Positions 4,938 to 26,542 are shown, counted from the stretch's first letter. The stretch: DNA of 26,767 nucleotides from Candidatus Firestoneibacteriota bacterium (GCA_043822305.1 JBDRBU010000022.1:1-26767), one strand, 5' to 3'. Numbers and translations are program-made. The notes: generated by a model from the sequence alone, not told the origin.

Positions 4938-5720
4938 ATGCGTTTTCTTATCACTTTAATTTTAATTCTTAGTACTACTCTGGTGGTTTTTGCTCAAGTA
5001 GATCTAGATATAGGAAAAAAGATTCAAAAGTATAAAGAAGATATAGAAAAGTTAAAAAAAGAGTTAGAAAATTCTGATCCTATTGTTCGAGCAGATGCAG
5101 CCTTAGCCTTAGGTGTTATAAAGAATCCAGAAGTTATTCCTTTTGTTAGAAAATTATTAAAAGATGTTGATGAAAATGTTAGATCTTCTACCATAAACTC
5201 CCTTTGTATATTGCAGGATAAAGGCTCAAGGAACGAAATCATTAAATTAGGACTATATGATAAATTTGGAATAGTTAGAGCATCAGCTGCCAGTGGGTTA
5301 GGTACTTTGCAAGATAAAATAGCCATTCCTGCTCTCAAAACTATAGCAAAACATGATAAAGAATCTATGGTTCGAATAACAGCGGCCATATCACTTAAAA
5401 GTTTTGGTGAAGATTGGGCCATTTCAATAATAAGAGAAACTATTAAAGATAGGAATTTAGATGTCCGTATCTATGCAGCCGCTATGTTATCTTCGCTGGG
5501 AGATTTATCTTGTGTTCCTATTGTTAGGCAAGGATTATCTTCTAAAGATAAAACAATACGAGGTGCATGTGTTAATGTCTTAGGACAAGTAGGTGGTGAG
5601 GATGCTATTTTGGATTTAAAATACATCTCTAAAAATGATGAAGAAGAAATTATTAGAGACACAGCCAGAAATAGCATAAGAGCCATAGAAGCAAGAATGA
5701 AGAAGAAAACTAAAGAGTAA
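4938..5720 (+). CDS. Exported HEAT-repeat (PBS-lyase-like) protein
   Basis: Signal peptide (MRFLITL...VFA-Q); repeats VRADAALALG, VRASAASGLG, VRITAAISL, VRIYAAAML; GGGGG RBS. Confidence 0.85.
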   Translation: MRFLITLILILSTTLVVFAQVDLDIGKKIQKYKEDIEKLKKELENSDPIVRADAALALGVIKNPEVIPFVRKLLKDVDENVRSSTINSLCILQDKGSRNEIIKLGLYDKFGIVRASAASGLGTLQDKIAIPALKTIAKHDKESMVRITAAISLKSFGEDWAISIIRETIKDRNLDVRIYAAAMLSSLGDLSCVPIVRQGLSSKDKTIRGACVNVLGQVGGEDAILDLKYISKNDEEEIIRDTARNSIRAIEARMKKKTKE

Positions 5721-6263: not shown

Positions 6264-8633
6264 GTGAAAATTAAAGCATTTTGTTGTTTATTTATAATAT
6301 GTTCACTATCTTTAGCAGAAGAAATCCTACAAGTACAAGAAGATGTTTATAAAGAAGAAGCAAAATGGCATTACAATATGGCTTTAGAAGTTTTAAGTAA
6401 GAAAGAAAATATAGCGGATAATCGTAAAGAGGCCATCAGAGTTTTGCATGAAATTATAGATTGTTATGATTCAACATATCTGGAAGGTTATGCTTTACTT
6501 ATAAAACTTTACAAAGAAGAAAAAGATGAGAAAAACTTAAAAGCAATAGAAGATAGATATAAAGCAAGAGTGGAAATTGAAAAAAAATTCAAGGAAGAAG
6601 AAGCCAAAGAGGTTTATAGTTCCAATAAAAACATTAATGAGACAATAATAAAATTAGGTTCGAATGATTTTAAGACAAGAGTTAAAGCTGGTAATGAATT
6701 ATTGAAATTGGATAAAGAAGCCGTAGATGGATTAATTAAATCTTTAAACAGTAAAAATATCTATAGGGCATGTTTATCCGCTAATATTCTGGGCAAGTTA
6801 AAAGATAAAAAGGCAATTATACCCTTAGGTGAAGTTTTAAAAAGTGGGTTTCCTTCTTTAAAGATTTCCGCCATAGAATCTTTGGGAAATATCAAAGACG
6901 AATCCAGTATATCATATTTAATAAATACTCTTTCTGATAGTTTTTATAGTCATTATGAAGGCGAATACAAAGTTAGAGAAAAAGCATCCGAAGTTTTAAT
7001 CAAGGTTTATAAAAATAAAGCACTTCCTTACTTACTAAAAGCTGTAAAAAATCCTTCTTTAAGATGGTACACATTAGAAACTCTCATTAAATTTAAACCA
7101 CTTCCAAAAGGCTTGGAAGATATATTAAATGAAGCCTTAGCTGATGGTGATGAAAAAATTCGTTTAACGGCAATTAAAGGGGTAAGTAATGTCCAAGATA
7201 AAAATAAATTTTTCAGTTCTTTTGTAAAATTAATCGCGGATAAAAATGCAACCATTCGCCATGAAGTAGTTAAATTATTAGCTGAAATACCAAAAAAAGA
7301 ATCTTTGGATTTACTGATTTTAGCCTTATCTGATTCTGATAAAGATGTGGTAAATGAATCTATAAAGGCTTTAGGAAAATTTAAATTAGATGATGTAAAA
7401 GAACTATTAGTTAAATTGGCCGAAGATGAAAAAATGGATGTAAGCATTAGATGGAATGCTATAAAATCGCTGGGAGAAAATTTTAAGAAATATGATATCT
7501 TGGAATTAAAAAAACTATTAGAAGATGAAAATATCTGGATAAAATCAGCAGCAGCTGCTGCCTTGGATTTTGAAAAAATAAACTACGAAGATATAACAAG
7601 TTCTATTTTAAAAAAGAGAAGAGAAAACTTAGATGCATTAGCTTTAAGGTTTTCATTAAGTTCTGCTAATGTATTTGAAGAAGGAAGGCAGGCATCTATT
7701 AGAAAGGGCTTGAATTTTTTGGTTAAAGAACAAGCAGAGGACGGCCATTTTAAAAGTAAATATTTTCCGCTTGGAGTAACACAATTAGCATTACTTTGTT
7801 TACTTAAGGAAGGGTGGAGCGAAGAAGACACTGTTGTTAAAAAAGGGCTAAAATATATGCTTGAACATGAACAGAAGGATGGTTCATATATTTCAAAAAG
7901 TGAAGTGGCTCTCGGAAATAATATAGAAAAACAAAGAAGTTCATACACTTCAGCCATAGCCATAATGGTCTTAGCTGCTACAAAAAATCAAAAATATACA
8001 GAAAATATAAAAAGGTCTATAGAGTTTTTAAAGAGCATTCAGGATAAAGAAGGTGGGTTTGGATATTTTAAAGATACTCGGAGTGATATGAGCTGTACTG
8101 AGTTTGCAATGTTAGGGTTGGATAGTGGTTATGACTTCTTAAAATTAGACAAAAAAGATGAACTATGGATGAAATTAACAAATTATCTTAAAAAACAACA
8201 GAATCCGGATGGAGGTTTTGGATATACAAAGGAATGGGAAAAAGCATCATACGGGAGCATGACGTCTGCTGGATTAACTTGCCAGATGTTAGCGCATATG
8301 GATTTAACTTCTTCTGATGTAAAAAACACCTTAAGTTGGGTTAGTAAAAATTATACATTGGATTCAAATCCAAAAGCGGATTCGGATAAGCATCATCCGG
8401 ATTACCTTAAAAGTTTAGCCATGGGTTTGCATTTAACTGGACTAAATAGTGTAATAGATGATAAAGGAAATATGCATTACTGGTATAAGGAACTAATAGA
8501 AAAACTTATAAAAGAGCAAAAATCAGAAGGTTTTTGGGAAGCAAAATATTATGAACCAGTACTATGTACTGAGTTTTATATTATGATCTTACAACTAAAA
8601 AAATTAGAAGAAGAAGTTATGGATATATTTTAA
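6264..8633 (+). CDS. Exported HEAT-repeat plus prenyltransferase/squalene-oxidase (QW) repeat protein
   Basis: Signal peptide, central HEAT repeats, and C-terminal QW-like repeats (FLVKEQAEDGHF, FLKSIQDKEGGFGY, YLKKQQNPDGGFGY, LIKEQKSEGFW). AGGAGG precedes the GTG start. Confidence 0.82.
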   Translation: MKIKAFCCLFIICSLSLAEEILQVQEDVYKEEAKWHYNMALEVLSKKENIADNRKEAIRVLHEIIDCYDSTYLEGYALLIKLYKEEKDEKNLKAIEDRYKARVEIEKKFKEEEAKEVYSSNKNINETIIKLGSNDFKTRVKAGNELLKLDKEAVDGLIKSLNSKNIYRACLSANILGKLKDKKAIIPLGEVLKSGFPSLKISAIESLGNIKDESSISYLINTLSDSFYSHYEGEYKVREKASEVLIKVYKNKALPYLLKAVKNPSLRWYTLETLIKFKPLPKGLEDILNEALADGDEKIRLTAIKGVSNVQDKNKFFSSFVKLIADKNATIRHEVVKLLAEIPKKESLDLLILALSDSDKDVVNESIKALGKFKLDDVKELLVKLAEDEKMDVSIRWNAIKSLGENFKKYDILELKKLLEDENIWIKSAAAAALDFEKINYEDITSSILKKRRENLDALALRFSLSSANVFEEGRQASIRKGLNFLVKEQAEDGHFKSKYFPLGVTQLALLCLLKEGWSEEDTVVKKGLKYMLEHEQKDGSYISKSEVALGNNIEKQRSSYTSAIAIMVLAATKNQKYTENIKRSIEFLKSIQDKEGGFGYFKDTRSDMSCTEFAMLGLDSGYDFLKLDKKDELWMKLTNYLKKQQNPDGGFGYTKEWEKASYGSMTSAGLTCQMLAHMDLTSSDVKNTLSWVSKNYTLDSNPKADSDKHHPDYLKSLAMGLHLTGLNSVIDDKGNMHYWYKELIEKLIKEQKSEGFWEAKYYEPVLCTEFYIMILQLKKLEEEVMDIF

Positions 8634-18290: not shown

Positions 18291-19085
18291 TTATTTCTCC
18301 CACTTTTCAAAAATTCTCTCTGCCCACTCCCCTAGTCTTGTTCCCTTATGATCTGATGCAAATTTAGTAACAATCTTTTTAGCTTCGTCGTTATCCCTAA
18401 ATTCACCCAGTCCATCTAATGCAATTTCAACAATATATTCATCTTCATTTTTTAAAGCAGATGCAAGTATTTTAATGACTTCTTCTTGCCGTATGGATGT
18501 TAATGCTCGTATAGCTTCTTCTCTAATTTCATAATGGTTATCAGATAATTTAGACTGAAGATTCTTAATAATCTTTAAGAATGTCTTTTTGTCTTCTTTA
18601 ATCTTAAAATGTACTACACCAATATTTTTGATATTAATTAAATTATCTTTACCATCTTCAACAGGGAAATTACCCTTACATTCAACATCAAACTTTCCTT
18701 CTTTACAAAAATTAATATATTTATTAAGAAGTATACGATAAGAATAATCCTGTCCCGATTCCACAAATCTTTTTGCTGTTATTCCACCAAATTCATAATA
18801 CGGGTTTAGCACTTTGTATTTATTCAAATTATTAGAATTGATTACATTAAACTCAAAACTATCTTTTCGACCATTTCCAACAATAAAAATAATCTTATTC
18901 GATATCTGATTTTTTATTTTATAAATTAAATAAATTGGCTCACCTAAAACAAAAGTATCTTTTTCAAGAACAAAACTACATTCAACAGAATTCATTTTTT
19001 TCTCCTCCGAAATAACAACAAAATTAAAGATTATTAGAAAGAAAATAATTAATATAGCATTTTTATAACAAGTTCTATTGACCAT
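18291..19085 (-). CDS. Exported beta-sandwich plus HEAT-repeat protein; putative partner/immunity protein of 19104-20300
   Basis: Signal-like N-terminus, FVLGEPIYLIYKIKN Ig-like start, C-terminal HEATs (IREEAIRALTSI, IVEIALDGLGEF); AGGAGG RBS. The immunity role is inference. Confidence 0.75.
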   Translation of the reverse strand: MVNRTCYKNAILIIFFLIIFNFVVISEEKKMNSVECSFVLEKDTFVLGEPIYLIYKIKNQISNKIIFIVGNGRKDSFEFNVINSNNLNKYKVLNPYYEFGGITAKRFVESGQDYSYRILLNKYINFCKEGKFDVECKGNFPVEDGKDNLINIKNIGVVHFKIKEDKKTFLKIIKNLQSKLSDNHYEIREEAIRALTSIRQEEVIKILASALKNEDEYIVEIALDGLGEFRDNDEAKKIVTKFASDHKGTRLGEWAERIFEKWEK

Positions 19086-19103
19086 AATGTTTGTCCTCCT
19101 CTT

Positions 19104-20300
19104 TTAATAATTCGGGATATCTTCATCTGACTCAAATGGTCCACCAGTTCCTTCTTTTTTTGTTTTAAATCTAAGGCCTATAACAGGAGTAGGTTTACTA
19201 TTATAGATACTATAAGTAATACCATAATAACCACTAAAAATATCAGTCCAAACACTTCCACAACGTAAACACTTAAATTGATACTTTTGAGTAACTGTGT
19301 AACTTCCTGTAGATGGTGGGGTACAAACCAAAGAAGAAGGGTGTTTATGAGTATCATAAAGACCTTGAGCATTACATACATATGGCGTCGTAGGTAGCCT
19401 CTGAGTTGTACCACTTTCAGGTAAAGGTGAACCCCCATTTGATCCAAATGGGGGGTTAGAAATAGCACTATAAGTTATAAGTTCTGTAAATTCACATTTA
19501 TTAAGATCATCAATAACCCCTGTATCACTAGTAATTGCAATATTAACTCTAAGTCCATATACTAAGTTTGTCGCTAATAATGTATTAGTTATAGCAGATG
19601 GATGTGCACAAACACTGAACCCATTAGAAATAGCACACTGTTTAACTCCGTTTAATTTTGCTACTATTTTTAGATTTCCTGCATATCCTGGATTAGTTTG
19701 AGTACTTCCACCAAGTACTGTTATTGCTCCACTATCTGTTCTCTTAAATGATTCAGTGCTAATTGTCGCCATTCCATTATTTGCATCACGATTACTTACA
19801 TGAAAGCAAATATCGTGAGGTGCACCTGCAAATGAAGGTATTATACTTACAAAAACAGCAGAAGTTTTTGTTGGAGGTAAACTATTTGGCCCAGCACCTC
19901 GTGCAACATCTCCTATTACAACTTTATAAACATTAAAATCCTTATCTCCACTAAAATCTGGGTCATCCTTTTCTAAATATTTACCAGTTACCTCTGCGTT
20001 TTTCTGTCCAGGATTTTCAAATTGAACCGTATTTGAACTTGCTACAACACTCTGTCCTTGTGCTCCTCCACTCCCAGTATTTGGTGTACCTTTTATCACT
20101 CCATCTTCTCTTATAGTCATCTCCCAACTTGTAATGGTCTGGTCGGACTGTGGCTCTATTGTACAAGAAACCTTTACATCTTCATTTACAAACGGCGGGT
20201 CAGGATTTATTTCCCAACCTGTTATTTTAGGACAGCATTCTAATATGTTGCCTGGTATAAGAAAACCTATTAGAATTAAAGATATCGCTACTCTTTTCAT
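19104..20300 (-). CDS. Exported modular protein: shared 125-aa N-terminal module plus unique Cys/His-containing C-terminal domain (putative polymorphic effector)
   Basis: N-terminus nearly identical to that of 21305-22552; C-terminus has SDTG..DL..C...E.ITY, DTH and CLRC. Confidence 0.8.
   Translation of the reverse strand: MKRVAISLILIGFLIPGNILECCPKITGWEINPDPPFVNEDVKVSCTIEPQSDQTITSWEMTIREDGVIKGTPNTGSGGAQGQSVVASSNTVQFENPGQKNAEVTGKYLEKDDPDFSGDKDFNVYKVVIGDVARGAGPNSLPPTKTSAVFVSIIPSFAGAPHDICFHVSNRDANNGMATISTESFKRTDSGAITVLGGSTQTNPGYAGNLKIVAKLNGVKQCAISNGFSVCAHPSAITNTLLATNLVYGLRVNIAITSDTGVIDDLNKCEFTELITYSAISNPPFGSNGGSPLPESGTTQRLPTTPYVCNAQGLYDTHKHPSSLVCTPPSTGSYTVTQKYQFKCLRCGSVWTDIFSGYYGITYSIYNSKPTPVIGLRFKTKKEGTGGPFESDEDIPNY
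19926..20300 (-). repeat. 375-bp coding repeat (shared N-terminal module), copy A
   Basis: Ungapped match to 22178-22552 at offset 2252; residues 31-125 differ at only 3 positions. Confidence 0.92.
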
Positions 20301-20315
20301 ATTTTTCCTCGATTA

Positions 20316-21290
20316 CTACTTATCCAAAACAACATTTGTTGGACCTGCTCCTATTTCTATCATTGTATTAATCTCTCTATCTTTTAGATTTATTATTGCA
20401 CAATAACTCTTCTTATCATTACAATTAAATGTTATTAAAGCTTTATTACCATCTGAAGTCACAGCACATAGTGGTATATATATCATATAATTGTTAAACC
20501 TAAAACTATTCAATGATTCAAGATTAATTTCATAAATCATTTTACCAGTTAATCTATTTATGGATTTCATTACTCCTGCTTCTATTACTAATAATGGCAA
20601 TTTCAACTTCTCCCATGGTGGATTAAGCCCATTCCCATCTGTAAATATCTTGTCCCCCTCTTGAACTTTCTTTTTGCTTTCATCTTGCATATCTTCATAT
20701 AAAGCCACACCAGGCACCCATGTCTTATCTCCCCTTTTACCGCCCGGCCATATTGCAACCATTTTTTTTCCATCGCTACTAAAAATACTCTCCTGATCAA
20801 TCGGAATATCTGATGCAAACATAATTTCTCCTGAATCAGGATTAATTGCAGTGGTTAGCTTATTATGTTTTGGATTATAGTATCCTGCATAAATTATACC
20901 TTCCGGGGAATATCTTATTTGATAGACTTCTGGAGATCCATGTTCTGGTGTATCAGAATCTAATTTTATTCTTTTAATAACTTCCATCTTTTCTATACTT
21001 ATCCCAATAATCCCGTATTGAGATATTTGTCTACGAGCATGCTCATTTGAAATATACAAAATACCATTTTTTGAATCAATATCAATACTGCTCGGATGTC
21101 CTAATTCTTCAAATGGACCAGCAGTTTTAATCAATTTTTCGCTGTTTGTATCTATAACATAAATTTTTTTATCTGTACAAACAATAAAAGCAAGTTGATT
21201 TTTATCTGTTTCACATAACACAAAACAAGGAATTGCAAAAACATAAAAGAAATATATTATTATTTTCAAATAATTTTTATTATTTTTCAT
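20316..21290 (-). CDS. Exported YncE/YVTN-like beta-propeller protein; putative partner/immunity protein of 21305-22552
   Basis: Signal peptide; blade-like repeats KIYVIDTNSEKLIKT, AVTSDGNKALIT and IEIGAGPTNVV; GAGGTG RBS. Confidence 0.75.
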   Translation of the reverse strand: MKNNKNYLKIIIYFFYVFAIPCFVLCETDKNQLAFIVCTDKKIYVIDTNSEKLIKTAGPFEELGHPSSIDIDSKNGILYISNEHARRQISQYGIIGISIEKMEVIKRIKLDSDTPEHGSPEVYQIRYSPEGIIYAGYYNPKHNKLTTAINPDSGEIMFASDIPIDQESIFSSDGKKMVAIWPGGKRGDKTWVPGVALYEDMQDESKKKVQEGDKIFTDGNGLNPPWEKLKLPLLVIEAGVMKSINRLTGKMIYEINLESLNSFRFNNYMIYIPLCAVTSDGNKALITFNCNDKKSYCAIINLKDREINTMIEIGAGPTNVVLDK

Positions 21291-21304
21291 TTTTCACCTC
21301 ATCT

Positions 21305-22552
21305 TTACCATGGTGGATTATTGATAATTCCCCTTACTGCTGTGGTATAGATACAACCTGCTGGATGATCAATACAAGTTCTATTACCATTATGATCATA
21401 TATTGTTCTACTTACATTAGGATTAGATGCAGGACCATAACGTGCAAATGCATCATCCCAAACCCAATCAGAATGCTCTGTTCTTGGATTCCACGCCCAA
21501 TCATCGTCAGTTCCTGGTGTTTTTTTAAAATAGTCATACCAATGGTTCAAATAAGTTTGTGCTTCTGTATGTACTGAATTAAGTGCTGTAACTCCATTAG
21601 TCAAATTAGTATTCCAATTCTAAATCTCAGATTCACTTGCAGGAGTAGATTGCATCAATCCATATCCTCCATCATGTGCGTAACATGGCAATGGCATTCC
21701 TATGCCAGTATAACGAGTTGCATTGAATTGACAATGTCCACTTTCTTTCCAGCAAACAGCCTTTGCTTCAATAAAACTAGCTATAGAAAATATTAGTGCT
21801 TGTGTAGGATTAGTACCATTTATCTCATAACCTTCCTTCTCATCTTTAATTTCTCTTAAATCATCATTTTTTTTTGCAACTACATAAACTTTAACATTAC
21901 CACCAGCTAATAATCCTTGCCAATCAGGTGTCCAATCTCCATTGTTTAAACTACCAGAAATATCAACAGTATTATTTTCAGGAATTCTATGAGAAATAGT
22001 TTGACTGTTAGGATCTCTGATAAATTTGTCTTCCAAATACCATTTAAATGTAAATTTAGCAGCATTTACTTCAGCATTTATCGGTACTATATCAGCATGA
22101 AAAGTAGGATTTGGCATTGAAGGACTTGTATCTATATTCATTGCTATTGTAATTGATGTAGTAGGTATCTTTACTCCATACACATTAAAATCCTTATCTC
22201 CACTAAAATCTGGATCATCCTTTTCTAAATATTTACCAGTTACCTTTGCATTTTTCTGTCCAGGATTTTCAAATTGAATAGTATTTGAACTTGCTACAAC
22301 TTCCTGTCCTTGTGCTCCTCCACTCCCAGTATTTGGTGTACCTTTTATCACTCCATCTTCTCTTATAGTCATCTCCCAACTTGTAATGGTCTGGTCGGAC
22401 TGTGGCTCTATTGTACAAGAAACTTTCACATCTTCATTTACAAATGGTGGGTCAGGGTTGATTTTCCAACCTGTTATTGCAGGACAACCTTCCAGAATGT
22501 TACCTGGTATAATAAAACCTATTACAATTAAAAATATTATCAATCTTTTCAT
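21305..22552 (-). pseudogene. Exported modular protein with C-terminal SLT/lysozyme-like domain, split by an in-frame TAG at 21622-21620
   Basis: ORFs 21620-22552 and 21305-21604 are in the same frame (SEI*NWNTNLTNGVTAL). SLT motifs WKES, GYGLMQ, N..G...L and AFARY span the stop. Confidence 0.8.
22178..22552 (-). repeat. 375-bp coding repeat (shared N-terminal module), copy B
   Basis: Matches 19926-20300; similarity stops abruptly after ...GDKDFNVY. Confidence 0.92.
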
Positions 22553-22566
22553 ACTCTCTCCTCCTT

Positions 22567-22625
22567 GTGGTTGCTCAATTCATTGACCCCGTATTAAATA
22601 CGGGGCTGATGAATCAGGCAACTAC
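22567..22625. repeat. REPIN-like long imperfect palindrome with GTAG/GTGG termini
   Basis: GTGGTTGCTCAATTCATTGACCCCGTATT-A-AATACGGGGCTGATGAATCAGGCAACTAC. Confidence 0.75.
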
Positions 22626-22648
22626 ATTATATCAAATATTAACTTTTT
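22623..22648 (+). repeat. 26-bp direct repeat, copy 2
   Basis: Identical to 18194-18219. Confidence 0.8.
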
Positions 22649-22653
22649 GTCAA
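22626..22653 (-). promoter_or_regulatory. Consensus sigma70 promoter for the four-gene effector/partner cassette
   Basis: Minus strand TTGACA (22653-22648), 16 bp, TATAAT (22631-22626). Confidence 0.7.
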
Positions 22654-22662
22654 GAATTTTTT

Positions 22663-25600
22663 TTAATTTATAAAAAAGACTCTCATATAGTCACTATCTT
22701 CTACTTGCTCATCAAAATCATCTTTTATCTCTTTGCCTTTTATTATATAAATTTCTTTTTGTCCCATCCTTGTTTTTCTTAATATAACTATCTTTCCATC
22801 ACTTGTTAAATCTTCTATTTTACCATCAAAACTTATAGCATCATCCAGTTCATCTTCTTTTACTTTAACATATAATTTATTTTCTTCTTTTTTACTTTCT
22901 AAAGTTGGCGAATATGCAATTCTTTTCTTAAAATATACACTATCTGTTCCAAACACTTTTATCTTCTCTTCACCAATATCTGGCTTGTAATTTTTATCTA
23001 CCTTTTCTTCTTTACTTTTCTTTTTATCATGCACATAAGGGTAAATAATAAAACTCATATCTTTTCCTGTAGTAATCATTCTTTTTTCTTCATCATCCAC
23101 TTGTAATACTTTATCAAACGGTTCTATCCAAATTTCACCTTCTTCATATCCAAAATAAGAGTCATCTTTAGAACTAAATAAACATCTTTCTTTTTTATTG
23201 ATTGTTTTTACTTTACTCTCTTCTTTACATACTCTTAAAGTATTTAAATTAAAAATTACATTTTTTTCTTTGCTATCTCTTACATTTATTAAAAAGTAAC
23301 CAGGTATAACCTCTGAATTATAATTACAAGAAACAGGTTTCATATTTACTATTTCTATGTAGTTCATATTGTCTTCCTTTTGAGATAGCTTAATATAATT
23401 TATTCTTCCTGTAATTAACATCTCTGATAATTCATAAATACTTTTTGGTTCTTGTTCTATAAATGCTAATGTCCTTCCATATGGCGTGATTTCAATATTC
23501 GCATTATTTAAATCTATGGCTAACATTATCTGCCTTTCTCCAAGTAATTCTCTATCTAATTCCTTATCTTCAAACTCCATATCTAATCTTCTATCCCTTA
23601 TATTCCAACTATTTCTCATTACAAAAATTTTGCTTTTGAGAAGATAAACATTGGTTCTTTCTGGTGAAAATGAGTTTTCCATTAAAAGTCCACCAAACGC
23701 TACATATCTAAAATCCTTCCTTTTATACATCTTACTTGCCCAATAAAATATTTCCCTTATATTTTCATCGTTTATTTTATCTGCTATTTTTAATACTGTT
23801 CCATCTGGCTCACTAACATACATTAAAAATTCTACCATTTTTTCTACTAGACTAATAAGTTCCTGCGGAATTTCTATATTATTTAAATTTGCTAACCGTA
23901 TTAACTCTATTAATATTCGCGTTATTTTAGTTGTTTCTTTTTCTTTATCCATACCTTCTTCATTAATTCTTGCCTGTAAAAATTCTATTATCTGTTTAAA
24001 TCCTTTTTCTATACTTTCTTTAGAACCATTTAACTCTGGATAAAGTATTCCATATCTTATTAATCCTTTTGATTCTTCTATGATTTCTAATGAATCTGTC
24101 TTAGATGGACTTTTTAACAATAATTCTGCATCTTCAATAAACCTCTTTTTAATTAAATCTGCAAGTCCTGTATCTTTCTCTAAAACTTCTTTTATAGAAT
24201 TAGCCATTCTAATTAATTCATTTAATCTTAATGCAGATTTTTCATTAGTTGTTACCTTTAGTTGCTCTAAATAATCTTTTAAAGTTTGCAAATACTTTTT
24301 TAAATATTTTTCTTCATTATTTATATTATTTTTTTCTTTATCAAATTTATAAGCCAAGACCCATTTCATCCAATCATTGTATATCTTAGCATCTAAATCG
24401 CTTTTTATTTTCCCTTCATTATATTTTTTTATCCAATCTAAAACATCTTTATATATCCAATTTAATGTTGAATCTTGATGTGGAACCTTATAAAATAGTA
24501 AGTCTATTGGGCTTTTTATGTTACTTTTCTCAATATCTTTATAAGCGAAATAATACGGAAACTTTATTTTTTCTGCTATTACTTCTGCTTCTTTCTCTTT
24601 ATTTCCATCATAATTTATTGAAAAACATAATCTTGCTCTATGCTTTCTACTTGTTGTTCGTTCATAACTGAACATATGTGAAACTTCAAATGGAACTTCT
24701 ACATTATTATAAATAACTTTAGTAATTTGATAACCTTCTTTTATTGGTATTTGTTTATCTTTATAATACATTTCTGTTACATCTACTATTCCCAAACAGG
24801 GTGAACCAACAGGAACTTTTTGAAATTTAAATTTTACTTTTGTTTGAATTTTGTCTCCTTTACTATCGTCAAACTTTAACTCAGGGTTTTCTGTTGTGTC
24901 TAAAAGATGAAAACTTAATGCAGTTCCATACCTTAATTTCTCTGCATGATTCTGAAATGGTGCTACAAACTGATAGTAAACATTGCGACTCCTGTTTTTT
25001 CTATTGTTTGGATCATCTCCCAGCCAAAATCTATCTATTGTATATCCCTGAGGTTCTGCTTTCATACCGTAATATGCTTCTGATTCTACTTTCTCAGGAT
25101 AACCATCATATGGAGTGGCTATCCAATATGGTTCTTTCCCATCTAAAAATTCTCCAGTCTCTATTACCCAATCATCTAAATTTCTAAAACTACTTGGATT
25201 ACCTTTGAATAAATAATATTTTTTGAAAGCAGATATAAATTCTTCATCAGTTAATATTCCATTTTTCCATGCATTATATCCATAATCCAACAATACTGGA
25301 TATGCAGAACCATTTATTCCTTCTGTGCCTTTAGGAACTTTTATTCCAGTCTCTTCGTCAAAATAATTCTCCATTATGTCTTTCCATAATGTTTTAAATT
25401 TATCTTTTAAGTCTAACTTTCTATAAATTTCTAAAAATGGTATTGTTGAAGGAGCGGTTAAACTTCCACCATACATAAAAACAGCCTTCTTTAATCCATT
25501 TTTTGAATATAAATATTTTAGTAGACTATTTATTTCTTTAGATTCATCTACGAATTTATTTTTACTACTAAAATACTCTGTTAATTCTAATATTCTATCA

Positions 25601-26484
25601 TCTAAGTATTCTATACGATAGTCATTACTATGATTTACTCTCTCATTTAAATAAGTCTTTAAAAATAATCTAAGTTTTGTGTCATATTTATCAGTATCTA
25701 TTCCCAGATTATATAATGATTTTACCAAATATATAACATCTTGACCTAAACATCCCCAACTAATTCCACCTACTTGTTTAACAGGATTAGATGGTTCCAC
25801 ATCTTCTGACCTGTAGTAAAATCTTCCCCCTTTCCATACTATCATATAATCTCTATTCCAAAAATCAAGCATACCTTCTAATATTTCTATTAATTGAGAC
25901 TTTGTTTTACTATCAAGATATTTTGCTACCTCAGATAGTTCTAACATTCCTATACCAAATGCATCTGGAAACCCTGCTGATTTTATAAAATACTTTCCTT
26001 TACTCTGGTCATATGGAAAGCGACGGTCTCCACTCCCTTTTTCTGAATAACCATAAAATTTACCATCATCTGCTACCAATTGATGAGTTGGTAACCAATT
26101 CTCTCCATCTTTATCTTTTGTGTTCTTATATACCTGATATAATTTATCTATTATCTGCTCTGAAAGTTCTTTATATTCTGGAATCTCTGTTTTTGCATAA
26201 TATCTCAGGTAACCATTCGCCTTTGATGGATACTGGGCAAAAAAAACCCATTTACAATAATACAAATCTCCATTAACATCAGCATTTTCTCCAAATAATC
26301 CATTAAAATTATATACACCTTTTATGAAAGATTCTAAACTACGAAATACTGAGATTTGACCAGAAAGGATTTGATAATCAGTAGATAATGGATGAGAATA
26401 AAGAAATGAACTTGATGCAATAAGTAAATACCAAATTATTACCCATATTTTTTTTCTGACTTTATTATCAATAACTTCTTTCAT
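22663..26484 (-). CDS. Large exported protein with degenerate heparinase II/III-like C-terminal region and unassigned N-terminal region
   Basis: Signal/TM segment after MKEVIDNK (ATG 26484 preferred over GTG 26535, which lies in the inverted repeat). EKMVEFLMYVSEPDGTVLKIAD, RKDFRYVA and SKIFVMRNSW resemble heparinase II/III motifs. Confidence 0.7.
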   Translation of the reverse strand: MKEVIDNKVRKKIWVIIWYLLIASSSFLYSHPLSTDYQILSGQISVFRSLESFIKGVYNFNGLFGENADVNGDLYYCKWVFFAQYPSKANGYLRYYAKTEIPEYKELSEQIIDKLYQVYKNTKDKDGENWLPTHQLVADDGKFYGYSEKGSGDRRFPYDQSKGKYFIKSAGFPDAFGIGMLELSEVAKYLDSKTKSQLIEILEGMLDFWNRDYMIVWKGGRFYYRSEDVEPSNPVKQVGGISWGCLGQDVIYLVKSLYNLGIDTDKYDTKLRLFLKTYLNERVNHSNDYRIEYLDDRILELTEYFSSKNKFVDESKEINSLLKYLYSKNGLKKAVFMYGGSLTAPSTIPFLEIYRKLDLKDKFKTLWKDIMENYFDEETGIKVPKGTEGINGSAYPVLLDYGYNAWKNGILTDEEFISAFKKYYLFKGNPSSFRNLDDWVIETGEFLDGKEPYWIATPYDGYPEKVESEAYYGMKAEPQGYTIDRFWLGDDPNNRKNRSRNVYYQFVAPFQNHAEKLRYGTALSFHLLDTTENPELKFDDSKGDKIQTKVKFKFQKVPVGSPCLGIVDVTEMYYKDKQIPIKEGYQITKVIYNNVEVPFEVSHMFSYERTTSRKHRARLCFSINYDGNKEKEAEVIAEKIKFPYYFAYKDIEKSNIKSPIDLLFYKVPHQDSTLNWIYKDVLDWIKKYNEGKIKSDLDAKIYNDWMKWVLAYKFDKEKNNINNEEKYLKKYLQTLKDYLEQLKVTTNEKSALRLNELIRMANSIKEVLEKDTGLADLIKKRFIEDAELLLKSPSKTDSLEIIEESKGLIRYGILYPELNGSKESIEKGFKQIIEFLQARINEEGMDKEKETTKITRILIELIRLANLNNIEIPQELISLVEKMVEFLMYVSEPDGTVLKIADKINDENIREIFYWASKMYKRKDFRYVAFGGLLMENSFSPERTNVYLLKSKIFVMRNSWNIRDRRLDMEFEDKELDRELLGERQIMLAIDLNNANIEITPYGRTLAFIEQEPKSIYELSEMLITGRINYIKLSQKEDNMNYIEIVNMKPVSCNYNSEVIPGYFLINVRDSKEKNVIFNLNTLRVCKEESKVKTINKKERCLFSSKDDSYFGYEEGEIWIEPFDKVLQVDDEEKRMITTGKDMSFIIYPYVHDKKKSKEEKVDKNYKPDIGEEKIKVFGTDSVYFKKRIAYSPTLESKKEENKLYVKVKEDELDDAISFDGKIEDLTSDGKIVILRKTRMGQKEIYIIKGKEIKDDFDEQVEDSDYMRVFFIN

Positions 26485-26525
26485 AAAAAAGCATTTTTTC
26501 CTTTTGTGGTAAATCAGGCAACTGC

Positions 26526-26542
26526 ATTGCCACACAGCCTCT
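26526..26542 (-). repeat. Right inverted repeat of the accessory region
   Basis: Reverse complement is AGAGGCTGTGTGGCAAT; 16/17 match to 17911-17927. Confidence 0.65.

Follow-up and report, generated by a model that had tools for sequence, protein, structure and literature searches.

The first polymorphic toxin described as itself a lipoprotein is SitA, which its report places between an upstream sitB and a downstream sitI gene, with delivery by outer membrane exchange and no relatives found outside the Myxococcales (PMC5562445). Zhang et al. in 2012 listed lineage-specific conserved N-terminal domains that carry polymorphic C-termini, including APD1, APD2 and MAFB-N (PMC3482391), and Tsi1, a partial beta-propeller, is reported to block a peptidoglycan hydrolase of type VI secretion (PMC3391265). 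Here we describe a locus in a 26,767-nt stretch from Candidatus Firestoneibacteriota bacterium (GCA_043822305.1 JBDRBU010000022.1:1-26767; hereafter the window, meaning this whole stretch) that is likely to be a polymorphic toxin-immunity system with two cassettes. Each toxin gene would join a lineage-specific N-terminal module (N-module) to an interchangeable C-terminal effector domain (C-domain) working in the periplasm, and each would be followed by an exported immunity gene: gene B for the C-domain of gene A, and gene D for that of gene C.

Five reading frames make up the locus on the minus strand (18291-26535), namely a large open reading frame (ORF) followed by genes A, B, C and D. An earlier reading made from this DNA alone (the sequence-only reading) had given the ORFs of genes A-D as we find them, all on the minus strand; the 1,290-codon ORF that stands upstream in the cassette had been overlooked.

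A shared N-module on unrelated C-termini

A repeat search returned one 300-nt direct repeat (19921-20220 against 22173-22472, identity 94%), and codon-by-codon comparison of genes A and C places their likeness at the 5' ends. The initial 375 nt of each gene encode the N-module: copy 1, in gene A, at 22178-22552 on the minus strand (signal peptide, Cys23 and a ~100-aa immunoglobulin (Ig)-like beta-sandwich), and copy 2, in gene C, at 19926-20300 on the same strand, with 91% amino-acid identity to copy 1. The two copies differ at 32 nt. Codons 1-30, the signal peptide, account for 17 of these and for eight amino-acid differences, while codons 31-125 hold 15 nucleotide differences and three amino-acid differences (E84S, I92V and K103E), the codon changes there being 10 synonymous against 3 replacement. 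Beyond codon 125 identity between the genes drops to 32/120 nt, and 5' of the ATG to 35/120 nt, both at background. The module thus breaks off sharply at ...DFNVY, a genuine junction, and the 375-bp shared module with three differences in residues 31-125 and an abrupt end, as counted in the sequence-only reading, is reproduced exactly.

Members of the family beyond the window share the same organization. Searching all 1.84 billion cluster representatives with the N-module gave 14 matches at E<=1e-3, of which two are the window's own, two look by inspection like unrelated repeat proteins and 10 are credible; four family members or their cluster mates carry the NCBI name Candidatus Firestonebacteria. 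By profile search the module is present in 4 of the 99 genomes of the phylum, with two matches in the genome of the window (G000), four in G010, seven in G011 and a single weak one (E 2.1e-5) in G094. Five of the seven G011 matches, those on contigs C207, C65, C219, C74 and C68, are cut inside the module by the end of the contig, so the assembly was probably split at near-identical module copies and the true copy number is likely to be higher. Scans of the genome-contig collection with a single N-module and with alignment A6 gave no match.

Four pairs of members resemble each other in the module alone: genes A and C of the window (90% identity over residues 1-129), C17 and C172 of G011 (77%, residues 1-150), C8 and C46 of G010 (79%, residues 1-228), and the proteins P0010 and P0013 (77% over 115 residues). 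An all-against-all comparison found no shared sequence beyond the module in any of the four. The sole C-terminus held in common is that of G010 C49 and P0029 (46% over about 370 residues), and about ten distinct C-termini occur among the 13 non-redundant full-length members. Pfam places Peptidase_M15_3 (5.6e-10) and DUF6973 (2.7e-10) among them; others show an HExxH motif (in P0007, by eye), a long coiled region or a Big_1-like region below the cut-off, and several had no match. Wherever the DNA downstream of a module gene is visible, it holds an ORF that, as judged by eye, opens like a signal peptide; the one that follows the M15 member encodes a HEAT protein (HEAT_2 4.7e-5, below the cut-off). 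The family thus displays one hallmark of polymorphic toxins, a conserved N-terminal region carried by unrelated C-terminal domains. A TBLASTN search had been expected, under the sequence-only reading, to reveal many copies with differing C-termini, each followed by an exported gene; the relatives bear this out with their range of C-termini, but the genome of the window, with its two copies, does not.

The N-module would combine a Sec signal peptide, an anchoring Cys and an Ig-like domain of ~100 aa. AlphaFold2, run on 13 sequences, predicts a seven-stranded sandwich over residues 25-125 (pLDDT 86.5). No Pfam family was found for the module in any member scanned, and the sequence-only reading had not recognised it as Rhs, CdiA, MafB or LXG; it appears to be a generic Ig-like sandwich behind a Cys. 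In 16 members the domain opens with a conserved Pro-x-[VI]-[ST] that follows directly on that Cys, and in 13 of the 16 the residues ending at the Cys fit a 4-residue lipobox core (PROSITE pattern). The AHGC of a G010 member, like the window's LEGC and LECC, fails this core, and in P0009 and P0014, short proteins consisting of the module alone, a canonical lipobox lies further upstream, together with a linker. The genome encodes lipoprotein machinery and an outer membrane (LGT, 1.1e-66; Peptidase_A8, signal peptidase II, 1.5e-43; Omp85, 1.2e-59). We read the N-module family as lipoproteins, a reading that is less certain for the two window copies than for the family.

An Ig-like domain probably also opens each of the two C-domains, as judged from their alignment: MAFFT laid the first ~100 residues of each onto the N-module (ITTPTS...TFHADI.P in gene A; V.VTIG...PPTKTYEV.VT in gene C). 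The junction F-x-V-x-I corresponds to the last strand of the preceding Ig-like domain, likewise in homologues with other N-termini. Combined alignments of module and C-domain (A8 and A9) were dropped because MAFFT put the C-domains' own Ig-like part on the N-module.

Two effector-partner families and their carriers

The C-domain of gene C (19104-20300, minus strand, 398 aa) spans residues 126-398 (19104-19925, minus strand) and belongs to no known family. Its homologues, at 34-40% identity, begin exactly at the junction, and those from named genomes fall in three other phyla (Phycisphaerales, Terrimicrobiaceae and Bryobacteraceae). Two invariant motifs, GFSVCAHP and FKCxRCG, suggest either a Cys/His or a zinc site. 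In all three of the distant loci the next gene encodes a HEAT protein of 322-340 aa (HEAT_2 1.6e-9, 3.4e-14 and 2.2e-9) with a signal peptide or lipobox and an N-terminal beta domain. This is the architecture of gene D (18291-19085, minus strand), an exported protein of 264 aa in which HEAT repeats (HEAT_2 E 9.1e-10) follow an N-terminal beta domain and which we propose as the immunity partner of gene C's C-domain. As the partner is exported, the effector would act in the periplasm. In two of the three loci genes for DUF4123 (2.2e-36 and 1.8e-32) and PAAR (1.1e-25 and 1.5e-7) lie beside the effector, which is there a stand-alone protein without a signal peptide; both are established markers of cargo for type VI secretion. 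The ESM Atlas offered a poor model of gene C's C-domain (pLDDT 0.47) and no usable neighbour.

The same distant loci carry a further conserved protein of 251-276 aa directly upstream of the effector (L090, 995-1750; L091, 4144-4911; L092, 1423-2253). It has no Pfam family and may be a second chaperone or a co-effector; in L090 and L091 the gene on its other side is that of the DUF4123 adaptor.

For gene A the link between effector and partner extends over a larger set. A metagenome scan with its C-domain gave 19 loci, from all of which the window's N-module is absent by tblastn, and in all 19 a relative of gene B stands directly downstream. Gene B (20316-21290, minus strand) encodes an exported, propeller-like protein of 324 aa, which in Pfam finds weak propeller-type matches below the cut-off only (DUF5074, 7.9e-4; Lactonase, 0.012); we propose it as the protein that gives immunity to gene A's C-domain. 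Its relatives were recognised by tblastn in 14 loci (23-34% identity, E 1e-25 to 1e-43), by full-length alignment in L101, and by profile comparison in L097, L104, L107 and L108 (95.2% probability, E 2.9e-8, 305 columns). In these last four loci a divergent subgroup of the partner accompanies a divergent tail variant of the effector, which indicates that partner and effector vary together. Three loci (L093, L094 and L099) hold the partner in two tandem copies, and tandem duplication of partner genes is typical of immunity genes. The gene directly downstream, then, tracks the toxin domain rather than its carrier, as an immunity gene of a polymorphic toxin does.

The carriers themselves are diverse. 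Gene A's C-domain sits on RHS_repeat proteins in L099 (1.8e-6) and L110 (1.8e-9) and, with a weaker match, in L102 (=L103; 5.9e-4); elsewhere it follows FlgD_ig or other Ig-like regions, or a bare signal peptide. Occurrence of the same C-domains on other trafficking carriers, a further property of polymorphic toxins, was found for the domains of both genes A and C, which points to effector-immunity cassettes that have passed from one kind of carrier to another.

One of the metagenome loci, L095 (1813-6922), repeats the grammar with a different constant N-terminal region: a 483-aa protein, an exported HEAT protein (HEAT_2 3.3e-12), a 570-aa protein and then a gene B relative. The 483-aa and 570-aa proteins have a common N-terminal region, unlike that of the window, and the 570-aa one bears gene A's C-domain; L095 represents a parallel polymorphic family in another organism.

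These carriers bear directly on a housekeeping explanation, in which genes A and C would be cell-wall remodelling lipoproteins, comparable to the lytic transglycosylases and peptidases that E. coli anchors in its outer membrane, each with a downstream periplasmic regulator or inhibitor, and the N-module an anchor and spacer copied by gene conversion. In its favour, the proteins combine signal peptide, Cys anchor and Ig-like spacer, one relative carries Peptidase_M15_3, gene A's domain has an ES...GLMQ motif, and some of its homologues have a signal peptide only; the Mlt enzymes of E. coli are outer-membrane lipoproteins. Yet in other phyla both C-domains are found on RHS-repeat proteins or beside DUF4123 and PAAR, the N-module is patchy at 4 of 99 genomes of the phylum, C-termini are swapped between near-identical modules, and partner genes are tandemly duplicated in three loci. 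Gene A, moreover, is broken while a canonical SLT gene sits elsewhere in the genome. We regard the housekeeping explanation as unlikely.

A modelled complex is consistent with immunity by direct binding. The pair modelled was the homologous one from L096, whose effector is 48-52% identical to gene A's domain and whose partner is 35% identical to gene B. It reached an ipSAE of 0.86 (three runs, 0.80-0.90), the best of three controls reaching 0.00, with contacts agreeing to at least 81% and a partner pLDDT of at least 86. The mark used for ipSAE was reached by 116/157 solved complexes and 2/215 mismatched pairs, counts that apply only roughly here since the L096 pair was modelled from custom alignments. 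The predicted interface takes in the Glu of the ES motif (E164) and the surroundings of GLMQ (residues 188-198), which supports a partner of the gene B type binding over the putative active site of the effector.

Gene A as it stands (21620-22552, minus strand, 310 aa) comprises the N-module, an Ig-like linker and the initial portion of a catalytic-looking domain, and ends at an in-frame TAG (21620-21622, minus strand). The frame continues open for 104 codons past this TAG to 21305 (21305-21619, minus strand), with the ending ...INNPPW seen in homologues. With the TAG read as X, residues 126-415 have 10 homologues at 44-56% identity, most covering 98%, and the TAG aligns with a Trp (E..WNW) that is invariant in all 10. 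Recoding of TAG was rejected, as it terminates 213 of the 1,193 ORFs of 250 or more codons in the genome; being an ordinary stop, it means that gene A has a nonsense change at the Trp codon, or else that the TAG is an assembly or population variant. In the assembly, a TGG-to-TAG change thus interrupts gene A, and gene B, its partner, remains whole.

A broken effector gene might also point to a decaying remnant, that is, formerly acquired effector-immunity cassettes that no longer work, gene A being a pseudogene and the likeness of the modules a recent duplication. Besides the TAG at a conserved Trp, the two N-module copies in the genome would fit this, as would the genome's second large gene, on contig C50, which is followed by a 13-codon ORF and no module gene before the contig ends. 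Genes B, C and D and the large gene are nevertheless intact, the 104 codons after the TAG are still open, the changes in module codons 31-125 are synonymous in 10 cases against 3, and the TAG is possibly a variant of the assembly or the population; we consider decay very improbable.

As to its activity, gene A carries ES at 270-271 and GLMQ at 298-301. E270-S271 and G298-L299-M300 are invariant in 11 sequences, at a spacing ~13 residues wider than in the canonical SLT of the genome. A neighbour cluster in the Atlas (score 0.86) has SLT on 17% of its members, which is a lead only. Filing the domain as SLT was rejected, the GLMQ stretch alone having matched canonical SLT, with no Pfam and no PDB match. 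That gene A's domain is a lytic transglycosylase is a motif-level lead, under which it would cleave peptidoglycan.

Several observations weigh against the toxin-immunity reading. Only two N-module copies are present in a genome that is 96.8% complete. In Foldseek the module matches generic Ig-like domains only (best E 9.5e-4, TM 0.4-0.58), so it is possibly a mere spacer, and LEGC and LECC, the sequences at the Cys of the two window copies, fail the lipobox core. Gene A is broken by its in-frame TAG. Its C-domain has no Pfam family (P0001 at E<=10, 11 members at E<=1) and no sequence match in the PDB; a genome search with PF01464 (SLT) misses gene A and finds only another gene, on contig C67, and hhalign against the profile of that canonical SLT aligns the GLMQ stretch alone, at 5.5% probability. 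The homologues with bare signal peptides (L093, L094 and L096) also fit a secreted hydrolase with its inhibitor. For the second cassette, AlphaFold2 run on five sequences gave an unusable model of gene C's C-domain (pLDDT 31), gene D resembles the distant HEAT partners weakly and in the beta domain only (hhalign 33%, E 4.4e-4), and HEAT proteins are common in the window, so that HEAT repeats alone are no marker of an immunity gene. The modelled complex, finally, covers homologues and not the window's own proteins.

On balance we favour a polymorphic toxin-immunity system. The proposal of toxin and immunity in the sequence-only reading is supported by the occurrence of both C-domains on known toxin carriers, by their fixed exported partners and by a modelled pair, the homologous one from L096, that passed its controls. 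Its account of gene A was right as to an N-module joined to a further domain, and missed the interruption at the conserved Trp; its label 'SLT-like' goes no further than the ES...GLMQ motif, with no match to the SLT family model or to a solved member.

The large upstream protein and a proposed delivery route

The large ORF (22663-26535, minus strand, 1,290 codons) is represented in the protein collection by a 1,273-aa protein that begins 17 codons into the ORF at MKEV... and has a signal-peptide-like N-terminus. Residues 694-944 match Hepar_II_III_N (E 1.8e-8, 34.5 bits against a cut-off of 22); no Pfam match at E<=0.01 was found for its paralogues from L134, L136 and L137, and no PDB relative with a profile of five members. 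Paralogues of the large gene, at 34-48% identity, stand directly upstream of a module gene on G010 C8, C46, C49 and C196 and on G011 C207, so that with the window included the large gene takes this position in 6 of the 10 loci where the DNA before the module gene can be seen; the loci without it are G011 C17, C68, C74 and C219. Its family occurs in 4 of the 99 genomes of the phylum (G000, G002, G010 and G011) and forms eight clusters among 5.8 billion proteins; this genome contributes two of the clusters, and the named ones are from Candidatus Firestonebacteria. The large-protein and N-module families are both confined to the same few genomes. Because the large protein is as rare as the module and repeatedly adjacent to it, we count it as part of the system, and infer that it is an accessory of the cassette with a role in export or presentation.

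The genome holds further copies. A second full-length large protein, 42% identical, is encoded on contig C50 (155-3748) and is followed by a 13-codon ORF behind GGAGG, with no module gene in the about 150-240 nt to the contig end; a third is represented by an N-terminal fragment of 164 codons (C50:36678-37130). In the window, 110 nt separate the large gene from gene A, and this spacer contains, as read from the sequence, a GC-rich perfect hairpin, CCCCGTA-TTTAA-TACGGGG (22587-22605, minus strand), which may be a terminator or an operator. Within the spacer (22587-22630) GTAG and the palindrome CTGATTCATCAG precede this hairpin, and a similar stretch, GTAGTTG.CTGATT.ATCAG, comes after the second large-gene copy, on C50.

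The Hepar_II_III_N match, the linkage of the large gene with lipoprotein genes in six loci and the export of the partners would also suit a surface attack and feeding kit of a predatory or epibiotic bacterium. Here the large, polysaccharide-lyase-like protein would strip sugars from the prey envelope, the lipoprotein enzymes would digest the wall and the downstream proteins would protect the producer, the purpose being nutrition and not competition among kin. The lyase match concerns a single member, with no PDB relative, and no Firestonebacteria paper among those listed is about lifestyle by its title; the mechanism overlaps that of a toxin-immunity system, and it is mainly the purpose that differs. 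Such a kit seems to us quite unlikely.

How a toxin of this kind would reach its target is a more tentative matter. A type VI effector would lack a Sec signal and be encoded in one genome with the secretion apparatus; the proteins of genes A and C start with a signal peptide, and neither VipB/TssC (PF05943) nor PAAR (PF05488) was found in the 96.8%-complete genome. For want of VipB and PAAR, and because membrane exchange, as for SitA, is the simplest route by which a lipid-anchored protein could enter the periplasm of another cell, we propose transfer with outer-membrane material, a route that we put forward as possible though improbable on present analysis. The toxin would be lipidated at its Cys and held in the outer membrane, and would reach neighbours with outer-membrane material, through vesicles or contact-dependent exchange. 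The immunity protein would bind the effector, covering its active site, and would guard the producer while the toxin crosses or sits beside the producer's own periplasm. The upstream protein of ~1,200 aa could aid export or presentation, working with the Ig-like module.

A bolder version, which we consider improbable, is that the large protein, the Ig-like N-module and the swap-in effector-immunity pairs form an as yet undescribed, lineage-specific three-part delivery system, in which the large protein would recognise the Ig-like module and then export, display or hand over to a neighbour whatever effector is attached. The large protein would then be a counterpart of MafA and SitB in their own systems, built from unrelated parts. 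If this were true, a bacterium without type VI secretion would be reusing type VI and RHS effector domains.

The remainder of the window adds no secretion machine among its genes. After gene D, on the same strand, come rpsO (Ribosomal_S15 2.1e-36) and pnp (a 700-aa PNPase), and the other genes are unrelated, encoding GGDEF proteins, HEAT and TPR proteins, ExbB/ExbD and an M16 peptidase. The best matches of the PNPase, spread over many phyla, reach no more than about 46-57% identity. Two further HEAT-repeat proteins lie at 4938-5720 (HEAT_2 3.6e-34) and 6264-8633 (2.4e-31), the second of which also has a prenyltransferase/terpene-cyclase-like alpha-alpha toroid.

Comparison with described systems

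A lineage-specific N-terminal domain that follows a lipobox and carries polymorphic C-termini is already in print (PMC3482391; PMC5562445), as far as those accounts go, which makes the locus less new in kind than the sequence-only reading held. The novelty claimed there survives for the parts while the general principle was known: new here are the N-module, the candidate phylum, the two effector-partner families and the giant accessory. No published description of the N-module, of the two effector-partner families or of the giant accessory was found in open-access text, and no toxin paper on Firestonebacteria appears, by title, among those listed.

With this locus, polymorphic toxins that are apparently themselves membrane-anchored lipoproteins, documented so far for SitA of myxobacteria, would gain a second kind, and the host is a candidate phylum known only from metagenomes. 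The same effector-immunity modules appear to change carriers, occurring with type VI secretion genes, on RHS proteins and on Sec-exported, probable lipoproteins. Two effector-immunity families are defined whose effectors have no Pfam model, one formed by gene A's domain and a propeller-like partner, the other by gene C's domain and a partner with a beta domain and HEAT repeats. The close link to a rare giant exported protein provides a concrete candidate for the export or hand-over step.

Among known toxins, those of the RHS/YD-repeat type share one of the effectors itself: gene A's C-domain forms the C-terminal tip in L099, in L110 and, more weakly, in L102 (=L103), with the same partner family downstream, whereas the carrier in the window is a 125-aa module and not an RHS shell. 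Type VI effectors are linked through the homologues of gene C's C-domain, which adjoin DUF4123 and PAAR genes; the window proteins differ in having Sec signal peptides, in a genome where no VipB or PAAR was found. Tse1/Tsi1 of Pseudomonas aeruginosa offers the parallel of a cell-envelope effector neutralised by a periplasmic immunity protein lying over its active site, as its report describes it (PMC3391265), but shows no sequence relation to the window proteins in Pfam, to which the search was confined.

Closer in the build of the toxin are APD1 and APD2 of Amoebophilus, in which, according to the published description, a conserved domain directly follows signal peptide and lipobox, precedes polymorphic C-terminal effectors and is read as a surface anchor (PMC3482391). 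APD1/APD2 and MAFB-N nevertheless belong to other domain families and other lineages, and the APD effectors are thought to be aimed at a eukaryotic host, without the grammar of immunity genes (PMC3482391). In the Maf system of Neisseria, as described, the lipoprotein is the upstream partner MafA and not the toxin (PMC3482391; PMC7738311).

The nearest counterpart is SitA/SitI of Myxococcus. By the published accounts SitA has several features in common with the present locus: a type II signal sequence on the toxin (putative here), and an N-terminal region that is conserved while the C-terminal toxin domains are unrelated (PMC5562445; PMC8546572). An immunity gene (proposed here) comes next downstream and, often, an exported accessory gene (proposed here) that is conserved stands just upstream; no injection machine dedicated to delivery takes part, and the family is restricted to one lineage (PMC5562445). 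They differ in the conserved N-terminal region, which compared by description measures 441-507 aa in SitA and ~125 aa here, and in the toxins, which for SitA are described as mostly nuclease-like and cytoplasmic (PMC5562445) while the exported partners found here imply periplasmic action. The accessory, too, is of another kind: beside the one that accompanies SitA, as reported, the upstream protein of this locus is a ~1,200-aa protein.

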